From the NCBI GenBank assembly GCA_041611735.1, contig JBFIML010000059.1:1-16765 (forward strand): DNA of 16,765 nt, given 5' to 3'. Source of the DNA: Myxococcota bacterium (GTDB lineage Bacteria; Myxococcota_A; UBA9160; PR03). The first letter of the stretch is position 1. Each line of letters starts with the position of its first letter. Position numbers and translations under genes: made by a program. A model generated the notes under the pieces. It did no database searches, was not told the origin of the DNA, and was given only the letters and a program-made list of their open reading frames with translations. Shown here one piece after another: positions 1,501 to 6,287 of this stretch.

Positions 1501-2622
1501 TCACGGGTCTCGAGTGGCCTCCCGGGCGACAGGGTATCCGCGGCGCCCGCCGCGTGCGTGCAGTGCCGCGTGGATCGCCTGGGCCGCCAGCGCGTGGCCA
1601 CGGGCGTTCCAGTGCATCCCCACGCGGTGGTAGGTGCGCCGCCAGGCCCGCCGGAAGGCGGGCGCCAGGTCCACGTGCTCGATGCCGAGCTCCTGGCAGA
1701 GCTGCCCCAGCGCCGCCTGGTAGGCGGGTCCCCGCCCACCGCGCCCGGCCTCGATCTCCCGCTTCGAGGGCACGAAGACCACCAGGAGGCGCCCTCCCCG
1801 CTCCGCCACCTCCCGGTCGAGGGCGGTCAGCAGCCGCTCCGTCACCTCGAGCTCCCCGGGCAGGAAGGGCTCCGGCCCGGCGTCGAGGGCCCCCCGGCTC
1901 CCCTCCAGGCGCATGAGCACGTCCGCCAGCAGGTGGGAGCGGCGCGCCATGCGCCAGAGGCCGGCCCGAGGAAGCCGAGGCGGAGCGGGCGGGACGTCCC
2001 AGGCCGGGAGCCGCGGGACCGGCACGCCGCGCAGGACCAGCTCCCCGTCCACGATCTCGAAGCGCGGCTTCGGCTTTCCGTAGGCGGTGTCCGCGTTGTT
2101 CTCCGCCACGTCGTTCTCGCTGAAGACCAGGAGCACGCGGTGGAGGGGTCCCGGGCTGCGCCAGCGCCGGAACGCGAGCAGCTGCTGGTCGGTGCCCCAG
2201 CCGCGGTGGGCCAGGTTGAAGACCTCGAAGTCGGGAAGACGCGCGCGCAGCCGGTTCACGAACAGGGCGTCCACCTCCACCTCGTAGCCCCAGGTGAAGG
2301 AATCGCCCAGGAAGACGAGGGCGGGCCGACCCGCCGCTCCGGGCCCGTGCTCCTCGTCCCGGAAGCCCGCGGCGTTGTGCGCCACGTGCACGCTTCCGTT
2401 CCAGGTGACGAGGGTCGCGCGCCCGCCGGGCACGCCGCTCCAGCCGAGGGCCGGATCCCAGCGGGAGAGGTTGCCGTACTCCGTGTGGTTGATCTCGGCG
2501 GGGTCCGCGGTCGGAAAGGGGTCCAGCACCTGGTAGCCCAGCTCGAGCAGCGCGAGGCACCCCCCGAGGGCGGCGGCGGCGAGCACCGCTCCACCCCACG
2601 CACCGGGCAAGCGGAGCGTCAC
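1501..2622 (-). CDS. Membrane-anchored SGNH/GDSL hydrolase-fold protein (AlgX/AlgJ-like acyltransferase or esterase)
   Basis: GTG at 2622 overlaps the upstream TGA (GTGA). N-terminal TM helix, then block I FLGDSF, block II NLAHRG, block III ENDV and block V MHWNARGH. Confidence 0.85.
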   Translation of the reverse strand: MTLRLPGAWGGAVLAAAALGGCLALLELGYQVLDPFPTADPAEINHTEYGNLSRWDPALGWSGVPGGRATLVTWNGSVHVAHNAAGFRDEEHGPGAAGRPALVFLGDSFTWGYEVEVDALFVNRLRARLPDFEVFNLAHRGWGTDQQLLAFRRWRSPGPLHRVLLVFSENDVAENNADTAYGKPKPRFEIVDGELVLRGVPVPRLPAWDVPPAPPRLPRAGLWRMARRSHLLADVLMRLEGSRGALDAGPEPFLPGELEVTERLLTALDREVAERGGRLLVVFVPSKREIEAGRGGRGPAYQAALGQLCQELGIEHVDLAPAFRRAWRRTYHRVGMHWNARGHALAAQAIHAALHARGGRRGYPVAREATRDP

Positions 2623-2960
2623 CGCGGGCTTCGCTCCTCGATGCGGAAGCGAGGGTCCTCGATGCGCTCGCTGCGGCAGCGCGGGCAGCGGCTCGGCGCA
2701 TGGAAGTGCCGCGGGACGCGATCGCGGAACACGAAGCCGCACGCGGCGCAGCGGGCCGGCTCCACCCGCAGGCGCCGGTCGGCGCCGCGCGCGCTCCGCT
2801 CCACGTGGCGGAGATCGTCCTCCAGCACCCGCACCGGGATCTCGAACTCCCGGCGCAGCTCGTCGAAGCCCCAGGCCTGCTCGCGCAGGCGCGCCGCGAG
2901 CTCCTGGCGTCGGGTGCGTCGCGCCCCGGCCTGGAGCGATCGGCCTTCGGAGCGGGCCAG
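2619..2960 (-). CDS. Predicted transcriptional regulator, HTH + Zn-ribbon (COG3357-like), 113 aa, probable CTG start
   Basis: TRRQEL...LEDDLRHV...VEPARCAACGFVF...PSRCPRCRSERIEDPRF with two CxxC pairs. No in-frame ATG/GTG/TTG between the upstream stop (2984) and the conserved region. AGGAGG lies 5 nt before an in-frame CTG at 2960. Confidence 0.8.
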   Translation of the reverse strand: MARSEGRSLQAGARRTRRQELAARLREQAWGFDELRREFEIPVRVLEDDLRHVERSARGADRRLRVEPARCAACGFVFRDRVPRHFHAPSRCPRCRSERIEDPRFRIEERSPR

Positions 2961-2983
2961 GCTGCCCTCCTCTTCCGGCTCCG

Positions 2984-3982
2984 CTAGCTGGCGAGCTCGG
3001 CCAGCAGGCGCAAGGCCGCCGGATCCCGGGAGCCCACCAGGAGCGTCGTGACCGGGCTCTCCCGCCAGGCAGCCAGCCGCTCCCGGATGCGCTCCGGCGG
3101 CCCCACCAGCGAGATCTCGTCGGCCAGGAGGTCCGGCACCGCCTCGATCGCCTCGGCGCGCCGTCCGGCCACGAACCGCTCCTGCACCCGCTTCGCCTCG
3201 GCGGCGAAGCCCAGGCGCCCGATCAGGTTCAGGTGGAAGTTCTGGCTGGGGGCGCCCATGCCGCCGATGTAGAAGGCGAGTGCGGTCTTCACGAAGCGGA
3301 GCGCCGCCGCCACGTCCTCGTGCACCACCACGGTCACCGGGCACGCGATCTCGAAGTCCGGCCGGCAGTCCTTCAAGGACTCGGCGTAGATGCCGGCGCG
3401 ATGGGGCGAGAAGAAGATCGGGATCCAGCCGTCGGCGATCTCGGTGGCAAGCCGTACGTTCTTCGGACCCTCGGCCCCCAGGTAGATGGGGAGGTCCGGG
3501 CGCCGGGGCTTGCCGATCAGCTTGAGGGGCTTTCCGAGCCCCGTGCCGCCGGGGTACGGGAGCGTGTAGTGCTCTCCCCGGAAGGTCACCGGCTCCTCCC
3601 GGCGCAGGATCGCGCGCAGGATGGCCACGACCTCGCGGGTGCGGGCCAGGGGCTTCGGGAACGGCTGCCCGTACCAGCCCTCCACCACCTGGGGCCCCGA
3701 GACGCCGAGCCCCAGGATCAGGCGCCCCTGCGAGAGGTGGTCGATGGTGTAGGCGGTCATGGCCAGCGAGGCGGGCGTGCGCGCCGAGATCTGGGCGATG
3801 CCGGTGCCCAGCTTGATGCGCGAGGTACGCGCTCCGATCCAGCACAGGGGCGAGAAGGCGTCGGAGCCGTAGGCCTCGGCGCTCCAGACCGAGTCGTAGC
3901 CCAGGCGCTCGGCCTCCAGCACCAGGTGGATCGGATCCTCGGGGCCCGTCGTCCAGTAGCCGAGCATGAGGCCGAGCTTCAT
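2984..3982 (-). CDS. LLM-class (luciferase-like) oxidoreductase, probably F420-dependent (Rv3520c-like)
   Basis: Start trimmed to the ATG at 3982. MKLGLMLGYW...AERLGYDSVWSAEAYGSDA...GRLILGLGVSGPQVVEGWYG...IYLGAEGPKNVRLATEIADGW are typical motifs of this family. Confidence 0.9.
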   Translation of the reverse strand: MKLGLMLGYWTTGPEDPIHLVLEAERLGYDSVWSAEAYGSDAFSPLCWIGARTSRIKLGTGIAQISARTPASLAMTAYTIDHLSQGRLILGLGVSGPQVVEGWYGQPFPKPLARTREVVAILRAILRREEPVTFRGEHYTLPYPGGTGLGKPLKLIGKPRRPDLPIYLGAEGPKNVRLATEIADGWIPIFFSPHRAGIYAESLKDCRPDFEIACPVTVVVHEDVAAALRFVKTALAFYIGGMGAPSQNFHLNLIGRLGFAAEAKRVQERFVAGRRAEAIEAVPDLLADEISLVGPPERIRERLAAWRESPVTTLLVGSRDPAALRLLAELAS

Positions 3983-3997: not shown

Positions 3998-5198
3998 CCG
4001 CGTCCGACGCCCCCGGAACGGGTGTGGCCATCGAATCCTCGCAGGCCCTGCACAGCTCCCGCAGCTCCGTGTCGCCCACCTCGCGTCGCACGTCGGCCAG
4101 CGCCTGGAAGCGAGCGAAGGCGCGCTCCAGCGCCGCTCCCGAGAGCGCGAAGCCGAGCCCCCGGGCCCGGGCGGCGAAGCCGGCCCGCCCCGAGAGCTTG
4201 CCCAGTACGATCTGGCTGCCCTCGCTGCGGCCGATCTCCGCCGGGTCGAGCACCTCGTAGGTGTCACGGCGCTTGAGGACCCCGTCCTGGTGGATGCCCG
4301 ACGCGTGGCGGAAGGCGTTGCGGCCCACGATCGCCTTGTTGGGCGGGACCGGGATTCCGCTGCGCTCCTCCACCAGGCGCGAGAGCGCAGCGATGCCGCG
4401 CGGGTCCACGTCCGTGTGCACGCCGAGCTGGCGGCCGTGCACGCGGAGCGCCATCACCACCTCCTCGAGGGCGGTGTTGCCCGCGCGCTCGCCGATCCCG
4501 TTCACGGCCAGCTCCACCTGGCGCGCTCCGGCGCGCACGGCGGCCAGGGTGTTGGCTGTGGCGAGGCCCAGGTCGTCCTGGCCGTGGAAGGAGAGCACCG
4601 CCCCCGCCAGCTCCGGGACCGCCGCGCGCAGCTCGCGCAGCAACGCCTCCAGGCGATGGGGCAGGACGCAGCCCACCGTGTCGGGGATGTTCACGGTGCC
4701 TGCCCCGGCGGCCAGGGCGACGCGCACCAGCTCGGCCACGAAGGCCGGGTCCGCCCGGGTGGCGTCCATGGGGCTGAACTCCACGTCGTCCACGTGGCGG
4801 CGGGCGCGCCGCAGCATGGCATCGGCCAGGCCCAGCACCTGCTGCCGCGAGCGGTGCAGCTGGTGGGCGAGCTGGACGTCGCTCGCGTTCAGGAAGACGT
4901 GGATGCGGGGGCGCGCGGCGCCGGCCAGGGCCCGCGCGGCGGCGTCCACGTCGGCGGACACGGCGCGGGCGAGGCCGCACACCACCACGTCGCGCAGCGT
5001 CCGGGCCACGGCGGCCACCGCAGCAGCCTCGGCTGCGGTGGCGCCCGGGAAGCCCGCCTCCACCACGTCGACGCCGAGGGCGGCGAGCTGGGTGGCGATC
5101 TCCAGCTTGTCGCGGGCCGAGAAGCAGACGCCGGCGGCCTGCTCGCCGTCCCGCAGGGTCGTGTCGAACACGATCACCTTCTCGGTCGGGGATTCCAT
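3993..5198 (-). CDS. leuA: 2-isopropylmalate synthase (DRE-TIM), short form lacking the C-terminal regulatory domain
   Basis: FDTTLRDGEQ, EAGFP, NIPDTVG, NGIGERAGN, NKAIVG.NAF.H.SGIHQDG, LGKLSGR motifs. 401 aa. SD GAGGAG at 5213-5208. A Leu-rich leader upstream supports a role in leucine synthesis. Confidence 0.85.
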   Translation of the reverse strand: MESPTEKVIVFDTTLRDGEQAAGVCFSARDKLEIATQLAALGVDVVEAGFPGATAAEAAAVAAVARTLRDVVVCGLARAVSADVDAAARALAGAARPRIHVFLNASDVQLAHQLHRSRQQVLGLADAMLRRARRHVDDVEFSPMDATRADPAFVAELVRVALAAGAGTVNIPDTVGCVLPHRLEALLRELRAAVPELAGAVLSFHGQDDLGLATANTLAAVRAGARQVELAVNGIGERAGNTALEEVVMALRVHGRQLGVHTDVDPRGIAALSRLVEERSGIPVPPNKAIVGRNAFRHASGIHQDGVLKRRDTYEVLDPAEIGRSEGSQIVLGKLSGRAGFAARARGLGFALSGAALERAFARFQALADVRREVGDTELRELCRACEDSMATPVPGASDAV

Positions 5199-5207
5199 CT
5201 CGCAGCT

Positions 5208-5350
5208 CTCCTCGGGCCCGATCCCGCCGCGGGGCCGGAGGAGGAAGCGCGTGGAAGGCTGGGGTCGAGAGCGCGAATCCCTCTCCGGCCGGCGCGGCGG
5301 GAGAGGGGCCTGGTCTGGACGGCTAGCGGCCGCGGGCCTTCCCCCCCGCC
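5208..5350 (-). promoter_or_regulatory. Putative leucine-responsive attenuator RNA (alternative hairpins sequestering the leuA SD)
   Basis: Complementary segments found by eye: 5350-5335 with 5310-5296; 5307-5300 with 5286-5279; 5290-5278 with 5246-5233; 5243-5232 with 5219-5208 (the last contains SD GAGGAG). Confidence 0.7.
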
Positions 5351-5403
5351 CCCGGAAGGAGCAGGGCAGGCAGCAGGCCCAACCGGTCGCACGGCACCGT
5401 CAT
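5323..5403 (-). CDS. Putative leu leader peptide (26 aa, MTVPCDRLGLLPALLLPGAGGKARGR)
   Basis: ATG at 5403, TAG at 5325-5323. Six Leu among codons 8-16 (TTG, CTG, CTG, CTG, CTC, CTT). Ends 124 nt upstream of leuA. Confidence 0.7.
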   Translation of the reverse strand: MTVPCDRLGLLPALLLPGAGGKARGR

Positions 5404-5786
5404 GGTCCCGACTGGGTATCCAAGGCCCAGCGGCCCGTCAACCAGGCGCCGAGGGCAGCCCCCAGCAGGTAGTGGGGGAAGTCCCAGAGCGAGAAGCTGG
5501 CCCCGATCAGGGTCCGGCCCAAGAAGGTGGCCCGCACCGCCTCGAGCGGCGGCGGATGCCAGAGCTGGAGCAGCTCGAGCCCACAGGTGGCGGCGAGCAC
5601 CGCCGCCGCCACCCGGCCCGGGGAAAGACGGGGTGCGACCGCCAGCACCCCGAGCACCCAGAAGAGGACGTAGAGGACGCCGCCGGCGAAGTGGTTCACC
5701 CACACCGAGCCGGGCCCCGCGTAGAGCTTGGTGGCGAAGCCGAGGGGCGTCACGAGCACCAGCGCCAACGCGCAGCGGCGTCGCAT
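5400..5786 (-). CDS. DUF2809-like small membrane protein, 128 aa
   Basis: MRRRCALALVLVTPLGFATKLYAGPG...AGGVLY...GLELLQLWHPPPLEAVRATFLGRTLIGASFSLWD resembles the E..QL / R.T..G.L.LG..F...D pattern I recall for DUF2809 (recognised, not searched). Confidence 0.8.
   Translation of the reverse strand: MRRRCALALVLVTPLGFATKLYAGPGSVWVNHFAGGVLYVLFWVLGVLAVAPRLSPGRVAAAVLAATCGLELLQLWHPPPLEAVRATFLGRTLIGASFSLWDFPHYLLGAALGAWLTGRWALDTQSGP
5413..5441 (-). promoter_or_regulatory. Candidate sigma-70-type promoter for the leu leader, inside the 3' end of the DUF2809-like gene
   Basis: TTGACG-N17-TACCCA, ending 9 nt before the leader ATG. The -35 is 5/6 consensus; the -10 lacks the conserved final T. Confidence 0.4.
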
Positions 5787-5882
5787 GCAGGGGCACGGTA
5801 GCCGGGACCGGGCGGCCTCGCTTCGGGTATGCTGCGCGGGTCCCGGGCGCCGCGGCGTCCGGAACCCTCTGGGAGGACGAGC

Positions 5883-6287
5883 ATGGAGCGTTTCCTCGGC
5901 GGCTTCGCGGACCGCATCTATGCCGCGCTCCGCATTGTGGCGGGTTTCCTGTTCGCGTGTCACGGCGCCCAGAAGATCCTGGGCGTGCTGGGCGGCGTGC
6001 AGGGCACCGGGGCCGCGGCCGAGTTCGGCAGCCTGATCTGGGTGGCGGGCGTGATCGAGCTGGTGGGCGGCGCGCTGGTGGCCCTGGGCTGGTATGCCAG
6101 CTGGGCGGCCTTCCTGTGCAGCGGCCAGATGGCGGTCGCCTACTTCATGGTGCACCAGAGCCGGGGGCTCCTGCCGATCCAGAACGGGGGCGAGCTCGCC
6201 GCCCTCTACGCCTGGGTCTTCCTGCTCATCGCCGCCCGCGGCGCGGGGCCCTGGAGCCTCGACGGCCGCCGCGGCAGCGGGCTCTAG
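5883..6287 (+). CDS. DoxX family membrane protein, 134 aa
   Basis: SD GGGAGG then ATG at 5883. LRIVAGFLFACHGAQK...IELVGG...AVAYFMVH...NGGELA...GAGPWSLD are DoxX motifs. Possible -10 TATGCT at 5828-5833. Confidence 0.92.
   Translation: MERFLGGFADRIYAALRIVAGFLFACHGAQKILGVLGGVQGTGAAAEFGSLIWVAGVIELVGGALVALGWYASWAAFLCSGQMAVAYFMVHQSRGLLPIQNGGELAALYAWVFLLIAARGAGPWSLDGRRGSGL

Follow-up and report, generated by a model that had tools for sequence, protein, structure and literature searches.

We believe that a short stretch of Myxococcota DNA, positions 5199 to 5403 on the minus strand of the 16,765-nucleotide (nt) sequence analysed here (contig JBFIML010000059.1, hereafter the window; G+C 72.7%), very probably holds a leucine attenuator that is read by the ribosome, built on the classical four regions, provided with a further, translational layer and placed directly before a gene for a short 2-isopropylmalate synthase (IPMS)-like protein. 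A sequence-only reading of the window had proposed a Leu-rich upstream open reading frame (uORF) followed by five RNA segments, S1 to S5, that pair in alternative ways and thereby control translation of the gene. The 26-codon uORF and all five segments are present with the letters and at the positions it gave (Table 1), and its central idea, that Leu codons are sensed through mutually exclusive helices whose parity is the right one for a biosynthetic gene, is supported by the family conservation described here. What it overlooked is that the Leu run of the uORF can itself pair with S1; this would be the classical 1:2 pairing, and the design becomes one of four regions (Leu run, S1, S2 and S3) plus a hairpin that holds the Shine-Dalgarno (SD) box. 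The element appears to belong to an uncatalogued leucine attenuator family with at least 90 distinct copies in an uncultured order of Myxococcota, a group in which cis-regulatory RNAs of amino-acid genes have hardly been described.

The leader peptide carries Leu at codons 8, 10, 11, 14, 15 and 16 (TTG, CTG, CTG, CTG, CTC and CTT), which is six Leu in nine codons, and two of these codons are indeed uncommon locally, TTG and CTT making up 7 and 5 of the 256 Leu codons in six genes of the window. The uORF forms the last part of an open frame of 157 codons (5323..5796), a length that is unremarkable at the window's G+C. To read the frame in relatives we anchored it on the Ala codon inside S1, a choice that is independent of Leu. 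Read in this way, 90 distinct copies have Leu at codons -5, -4 and -3 before S1 in 89, 74 and 89 cases, and at codons -9, -8 and -7 in 69, 44 and 47; codon -3 is CTT in 81 of the copies, and CTG-CTC-CTT is the commonest triplet (46 of 90). Other positions of the peptide vary, as does its length. Most copies offer an in-frame ATG no more than 45 codons away, and in all of them the frame closes before S2.

The same leader is conserved before two unrelated types of IPMS. A protein search of 40 relatives found orthologues of the short IPMS in 10 genomes (66-80% identity, 376-454 amino acids), canonical LeuA proteins reaching 47-57%, and nine of the ten orthologues have the leader upstream, the corresponding region of the tenth being masked by N. 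The orthologous leaders have in common a TTGACN-17-TANNNN motif, a 23-28-codon open reading frame ending ...LLLxGAGEGxxGR*, an S1 of the form GGGGCGGGAGAGGG, an S2 of the form CCCUCUCCCGCC, and an S3 of the form GGCCGGAGAGGG followed by UUUCGUGUUU. They also share a hairpin between the SD and an upstream pyrimidine stretch, the sequence of which is lineage-specific (CGCUCC/GGAGCG, CUCCGAU/AUCGGAG and GUUCGCUCC/GGAGCGAAC). When a DNA pattern for S2, loop and S3 was scanned over contigs from one genome per species, it returned 110 loci, mostly in metagenome-assembled genomes labelled Myxococcota or "Deltaproteobacteria", and 96 of these carry the leader: 42 before a short IPMS, 60-153 nt downstream; 44 before a long IPMS of the leuA_yeast type (NF002991, 344-882 bits, cut-off 455); 4 before transporters of the major facilitator superfamily (MFS); and 6 at contig ends. 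The remaining 14, which have neither leader nor U-rich tail, we take as chance. Every long IPMS not cut by a contig end exceeds the NF002991 cut-off, and the full-length ones also pass TIGR00970. Short and long IPMS are only 26-30% identical in 19 of 20 scored loci, and 36% identical in one.

A covariance model built from the 90 distinct copies and run over 151 genomes of the phylum indicates that the family is restricted to one clade. Within the order it matches 19 of 23 genomes (E<=4e-10), and in a sister family 2 of 4; the other 123 genomes yield five marginal matches only. Of three inspected, we take two as false, the weak matches (E ~1e-4) at L169 and L171 being an ordinary gene-end terminator and coding sequence, respectively. 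A dispersed repeat was also considered and is ruled out by the single copy in the window's genome and by essentially one forward match per genome. Two further weak matches (E ~1e-4), L168 in genome G027 and L170 in G047, show a similar terminator hairpin after different small open reading frames, one beginning MCCLPLPGS..., and the genes downstream of them are not IPMS; they may be further siblings or chance.

The four MFS-linked loci (L035, L112, L115 and L128) keep the S1/S2/S3 core and the U-rich tail, with about 230 nt of leader before the S2 pattern, and their peptides just before S1 read WTVWKCK, WTVWKWK, SKWQ and LSWWKR, with Trp in place of Leu. The downstream protein is an MFS transporter (PF07690, 7e-27 to 6e-58). 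These leaders look like a Trp-coded sibling of the leucine attenuator, and the recoding before another class of gene carries weight because it is exactly the swap that a codon-reading device predicts.

The complementarity among S1, S2 and S3 is strongly conserved and its covariation is sparse. RNAalifold returns the S2:S3 hairpin as the consensus structure, and this helix is 99.4% paired over 96 copies, in which S1:S2 reaches 92%. In a MAFFT alignment of 90 copies S1:S2 is 92.2% paired, against 55-62.5% with the partner slid, and the helix of the Leu run with S1 (CCUGCUCC/GGGGCGGG, regions 1 and 2) is 81.7% paired in 90 copies, against 42-68% slid; the minimum free energy (MFE) structure of the window also pairs the Leu run with S1, and in the naked MFE structure a long helix joins S4 to the S3 region. 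In the family, A:U pairs on the flanks lengthen the S2:S3 stem and covary with G:C; a flanking pair of this terminator that lies outside the search pattern is AU in 68 copies, GC in 18 and GU in 3, the window supplying the single mismatch (CA). Individual compensatory changes occur only in distant members found by the covariance model: in L163 and L164 a U>C in S2 is matched by A>G on each of its partners, S1 and S3, L167 combines C>U in S2 with G>A in S3, and L013 combines C>U with G>A in S1.

Of 89 distinct copies, 86 have TTT or CTT directly after the S2:S3 hairpin, and in 83 the 12 nt that follow contain 5-10 T. The sequence-only reading had argued that the switch is translational since the hairpin lacks a U-tract. 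The window's tail is U-poor, as it stated, but the tails of the family are U-rich and termination would be expected of them; the window is an extreme outlier in this respect, and its missing U-tract therefore misled the earlier reader. As a separate observation, four loci (L040, L057, L074 and L160) have short tandem repeats directly after the terminator and before the long leuA, for example GGTTTGA four times, GTTCGCGTTTCGGG twice, and TTTTGACG/TATTGGCG repeated many times.

A putative promoter accompanies the leader. TTGAC is present in nine of ten aligned orthologous leaders, and in 75 of the 90 distinct copies a motif TTGACN-N16-18-TANNNN ends 4-10 nt before the in-frame uORF start, the distance from the -10 element to the start being 6-10 nt in 74 of the 75 and 4 nt in one. 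This spacing suggests a transcript that is leaderless or nearly so. Leader peptides in Corynebacterium are often encoded on leaderless transcripts. A consensus promoter and terminator scan of 5100-5900 called no promoter and no terminator. The uORF might also be translated by coupling on a read-through transcript from the upstream DUF2809 gene, the two overlapping at ATGA.

Folding models show how such a leader could respond to a stalled ribosome. In a co-transcriptional model, transcripts were folded up to the 3' end of S2 with the ribosome at set positions, and the antiterminator S1:S2 was counted as predicted when its probability exceeded 0.5. With the A site on the Leu codon at -5 the antiterminator is predicted in 83 of 90 copies (P(S1:S2) 0.78 in the window), compared with 34 of 90 for the naked transcript (0.05 in the window, the S1 of which then pairs upstream at 0.65) and 18 of 90 when the ribosome has reached the stop codon (0.09).

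The same models support a second layer in the family, a relay in which S3, S4 and S5 pass the decision on to the SD. Once the terminator hairpin has formed, the SD has a median predicted accessibility of 0.01 in short-type and 0.13 in long-type loci, against 0.28-0.29 for shuffled spacers, and values below 0.3 are found for 42 of 43 short-type loci and for 29 of 39 long-type ones; the SD-hiding S4:S5 hairpin claimed from the single sequence is thus real in the family. When S1:S2 forms instead and S3 is left free, the medians rise to 0.47 (short-type) and 0.50 (long-type). The relay as a whole, with a gain above 0.2, is predicted in 48 of 82 relatives (27 of 43 short-type, 21 of 39 long-type), the opposite change being seen in 1 and 2. 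In constrained folds of the window, formation of S2:S3 leaves S4 to pair with S5, the SD being unpaired with a probability of at most 0.10 at every base.

From these features we infer a promoter, translation of the uORF, stalling, termination and, through them, all regulation, and the general course of events can be set out as follows. A promoter inside the end of the DUF2809 gene would start a leaderless or nearly leaderless transcript that opens with the 26-codon leader peptide. Consider first a cell in which charged tRNA-Leu is plentiful. The ribosome would pass the Leu run and S1, or S1 would re-pair with the Leu run behind it; S2 would then be free for S3, giving the hairpin that is a predicted intrinsic terminator in relatives, and S4 would pair with the SD, so that any message read through would also be poorly translated, and the gene would be off. 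When charged tRNA-Leu is scarce, a ribosome stalled at the first codon of CTG-CTC-CTT would cover region 1 and leave S1 free to capture S2 as it emerges; this antiterminator would preclude the terminator, the free S3 could pull S4 off the SD, and the gene would be on.

Much of this design is familiar. Like the enterobacterial leuL leader (Rfam RF00512, Leu_leader), the family has a short open reading frame with a Leu run and the alternatives of a putative 1:2 helix, a 2:3 antiterminator and a 3:4 terminator; it too is placed directly before the first enzyme of the leucine pathway and would be off in leucine excess. Unlike leuL, it occurs in another host phylum, on a leader that is apparently leaderless, with an extra SD-sequestering hairpin coupled to the 3' arm of the terminator; it would regulate one IPMS paralogue where leuL serves an operon, there is no U-tract in the window's copy, and it does not match the Rfam family in sequence or structure. 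Searched at gathering score, as the sequence-only reading had proposed, Rfam (RF00512 included) matched neither the window nor loci L012, L041, L165, L176 and L035, and at E<=10 it gave only chance microRNA and small-RNA models in 5100-5500. A survey of the open-access literature (PMC and bioRxiv) did not turn up any description of a leader like this for Myxococcota or Deltaproteobacteria. Leu-rich leader peptides also control branched-chain amino-acid genes in Corynebacterium glutamicum (leuA/ilvB) and in Staphylococcus aureus (a leucine-rich attenuator peptide, PMC5794164); these belong to other phyla and other gene arrangements.

Among elements described so far, the closest relative may be the LEU element of Actinobacteria (Seliverstov et al. 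2005, PMC1262725), although we regard this as a lead and not a demonstration. In that paper the LEU element is a pseudoknot without an obvious terminator, its authors doubt ribosome-mediated attenuation and favour binding of a protein or small ligand, and they cite an actinobacterial experiment in which mutations of the Leu codons did not affect regulation. As described there, the LEU element shares with our family a Leu-run uORF before an IPMS gene, a run complementary to the SD, and alternative structures. In the LEU element a base stem of the Leu-codon run with the SD of leuA encloses the pseudoknot. In the window CUCCUU (5361-5356) is complementary to GAGGAG (5213-5208), but any CUCCU-type run pairs with any SD. 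In many loci of the Myxococcota family the gene that follows is a long IPMS of the leuA_yeast type, the type also found in Actinobacteria; unlike the LEU element as there described, the family has a clear terminator hairpin with a U-rich tail, and its host phylum differs. The leuA leader of a Nonomuraea sp. (L176:1358-1402) encodes MLRGLLLSRRGGGH, which resembles the ...LLLSRAGGS of the Myxococcota family, and continues from CTC-CTT-CTT-AGC into a G-rich stretch able to pair with a downstream C-rich stretch, without a U-tract. Against this leuA locus the family covariance model scores 9.3 bits (E 0.046), top-ranked and at the position of the leader, which is not significant.

Several observations weigh against a leucine attenuator in the window. 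In the family, covariation of S1:S2 is thin, with one pair showing a double change and 7 of 500 shuffles reaching the observed score; that of the 1:2 helix is no better than in shuffles (233 of 500 reach its score); and 80 of the 90 alignment rows were ascertained by a pattern that fixes S2 and S3, which hides part of the covariation. The sequence-only reading had named equally good pairing in shuffled sequences as grounds for refutation, and for the single sequence the comparison goes against it: the 221-nt window leader has an MFE of -119.8 kcal/mol (z -1.03), and 38 of 200 shuffles fold as well, while for the 101-nt core (z +0.66) 148 of 200 do. The case therefore rests on comparison with relatives, and we dropped single-sequence thermodynamics as evidence in either direction. 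At equilibrium with S3 present, moreover, the terminator is the predicted outcome wherever the ribosome stands (P about 1), so any switch must be kinetic; equilibrium folds with ribosome footprints and S3 cannot show one, and truncated transcripts were used instead. In the model the position of the stall matters as well. The earlier concern that a ribosome at codons 14-16 would partly cover S1 is borne out for the last Leu codon, which when in the A site (-3) blocks S1 (antiterminator predicted in 9 of 90 copies; P 0.00 in the window), and not for the first. The short IPMS falls just under its equivalog cut-off, and we therefore infer its substrate. Finally, the window's copy is itself atypical. 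Its tail, ATTCGCGCTCTC, has 4 T in 12, tied for the lowest of 89, and is the only one to start with A; the consensus scan of 5100-5900 found no terminator-like site; the flanking stem extension is lost; S1 has diverged, and S1:S2 still pairs through G:U; and freeing S3 is predicted to leave the SD closed (0.04 to 0.06), other pyrimidine stretches taking it up, so that the relay predicted in relatives is not reproduced in the window itself.

These peculiarities could mean that the window's switch is purely translational, S2:S3 being a non-terminating hairpin and leucine deciding only whether S4 lies on the SD (S2:S3 with S4:S5) or on S3 (S1:S2 with S3:S4). We consider this unlikely. The eroded tail, the silent scan and the lost stem extension would all fit, as would the predicted S4:S5 sequestration of the SD and the long S3:S4 helix that the window and its closest relative, G003, can both form. 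However, the SD that should open stays paired when S1:S2 is imposed, and since the tails of the family are U-rich, the change would have to be recent and local. More doubtful still is that the copy in the window once worked as an attenuator, has since lost its regulatory role and is now decaying, with the gene read from the DUF2809 transcript or expressed constitutively. Its covariance-model score of 74 bits is among the lowest of full-length members of the order, most of which score 83-113; its S1, U-tail and stem extension have suffered as described; and DUF2809, absent in G003, overruns the promoter and abuts the uORF. Yet the uORF has lost neither its ATG and frame nor its Leu run and stop, TTGACG-17-TACCCA is still in place, S1:S2 pairs via its G:U replacements and still forms in the stalled-ribosome model, and sequestration of the SD is intact in constrained folds. 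It is very improbable that the conserved RNA is a protein- or ligand-binding site of the sort favoured for the LEU element, the uORF being incidental: very strong sequence conservation with little covariation, and the Leu-codon mutations without effect cited in PMC1262725, would suit such a site, but start, frame, stop and position-specific Leu are conserved while the rest of the peptide varies, Leu is enriched also at poorly conserved upstream codons, and a ligand site does not predict the same helices with Trp codons before another class of gene. Overall, we retain the ribosome-mediated attenuator for the window, where termination is the doubtful step, the U-tail being eroded, and where the copy may act mainly at translation, act weakly, or be decaying.

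The presence of the leader before both types of IPMS bears on the regulated gene as well. The 401-residue product has the catalytic barrel and the post-barrel subdomain (HMGL-like PF00682, 3.4e-79; HCS_D2 PF22617, 2.3e-23), and no Pfam match to LeuA_dimer, the C-terminal leucine-binding regulatory domain, was found in it. Its best NCBIfam model is NF002086 (IPMS), at 515 bits against a cut-off of 532 over profile positions 4-382 of 516, and it scores 468.6 bits against TIGR00973 (cut-off 598.7). The genome has four HMGL-like genes; another of them is HMG-CoA lyase, and a full-length LeuA on a different contig covers the whole of TIGR00973 at 712.9 bits, so the window's gene is an extra, shortened paralogue. 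Because the gene is short we considered a lysine or homocitrate-synthase leader of the Thermus type, which was dropped on account of the Leu, not Lys, codons and of best models that are IPMS. Counted by eye from the match rows, 41 genomes divide into 11 with the short IPMS only, 23 with the long only, none with both and 7 with neither; whichever is present carries the attenuator, and canonical LeuA does not. There is thus evidence that the short paralogue works in leucine synthesis, because it shares a Leu-codon leader with a bona fide long IPMS and the two apparently replace each other. In this context, the leader would take over for an extra IPMS the leucine control that the missing feedback domain provides elsewhere.

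Taken together, one possibility, which we put forward tentatively and consider less likely than not, is that the element is one instance of a portable attenuator chassis in one Myxococcota order: a fixed S1/S2/S3 core read from a leaderless mini-gene, under which the IPMS has been swapped between two non-homologous types, Leu recoded to Trp for control of an MFS transporter and an SD hairpin coupled, which may be a terminator-bearing relative of the LEU element, and whose terminator in the window has eroded as the device perhaps shifts to translational control. If so, the SD hairpin coupled to S3 would let one decision gate both transcription and translation, and with the Trp-coded sibling it would make a compact natural example of modular attenuator design. 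Kinship with the LEU element would speak for a ribosome reading that element as well, the workings of which have stood in question since 2005; in any case, the likeness could be used to put its disputed mode of action to the test. A specialist will recognise a textbook mechanism here and not be surprised; what is new is the family, with its translational add-on.

Table 1. Features of the leucine leader and its immediate context in the window, all on the minus strand.
Feature	Coordinates	Strand	Basis
Leader peptide uORF, 26 codons plus TAG, MTVPCDRLGLLPALLLPGAGGKARGR	5323..5403 (ATG 5403-5401, TAG 5325-5323)	minus	sequence reading; frame conserved in relatives
Putative regulatory Leu run (codons 14-16, CTG CTC CTT); region 1 includes its flanking bases	5356..5364	minus	codon conservation; MFE pairs the run with S1
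S1 (region 2), G-rich 5' arm of the predicted antiterminator, inside the uORF	5335..5350	minus	S1:S2 complementarity across copies
S2 (region 3), shared strand CCCCUCUCCCGCC, pairs with S1 or S3; most conserved segment	5296..5310	minus	comparative
S3 (region 4), 3' arm of the terminator-type hairpin; window tail 5277-5266 U-poor	5278..5290	minus	RNAalifold consensus
S4, pyrimidine-rich anti-SD segment UUCCUCCUCCGGCC, pairs with S5 or S3	5233..5246	minus	constrained folds of the window
S5, GGGCCCGAGGAG, holds the SD box GAGGAG (5213-5208) of the short IPMS	5208..5219	minus	constrained folds
Predicted -35 hexamer TTGACG of the leader promoter, inside the DUF2809 3' end	5436..5441	minus	inferred from conserved motif
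Predicted -10 hexamer TACCCA; spacer of 17 nt to the -35 and of 9 nt to the uORF ATG	5413..5418	minus	inferred from conserved motif
Regulated gene, 2-isopropylmalate-synthase-like (short IPMS), 401 amino acids	3993..5198	minus	domain and family profile searches
DUF2809 membrane-protein gene, 127 amino acids; context, outside the switch	5400..5783 (about)	minus	domain search

The TGA of DUF2809 overlaps the ATG of the uORF, in a different frame, and beyond DUF2809 lie DoxX and SDR genes on the opposite strand. Locus L006 of G003 keeps the arrangement of DoxX-SDR and leader-IPMS-oxidoreductase and lacks DUF2809, which is therefore a local addition that now overlies the leader promoter. Downstream of the short IPMS, a gene for an F420-type luciferase-like oxidoreductase starts after 13 nt. 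Further on, the C-terminal ~100 residues of a long open frame (2619-3845, minus strand) match PF0610-like N-terminal and Zn-ribbon domains (8e-13 and 7e-9), and a small gene for a PF0610-type regulator probably lies just downstream of the oxidoreductase, at ~2619-2930.

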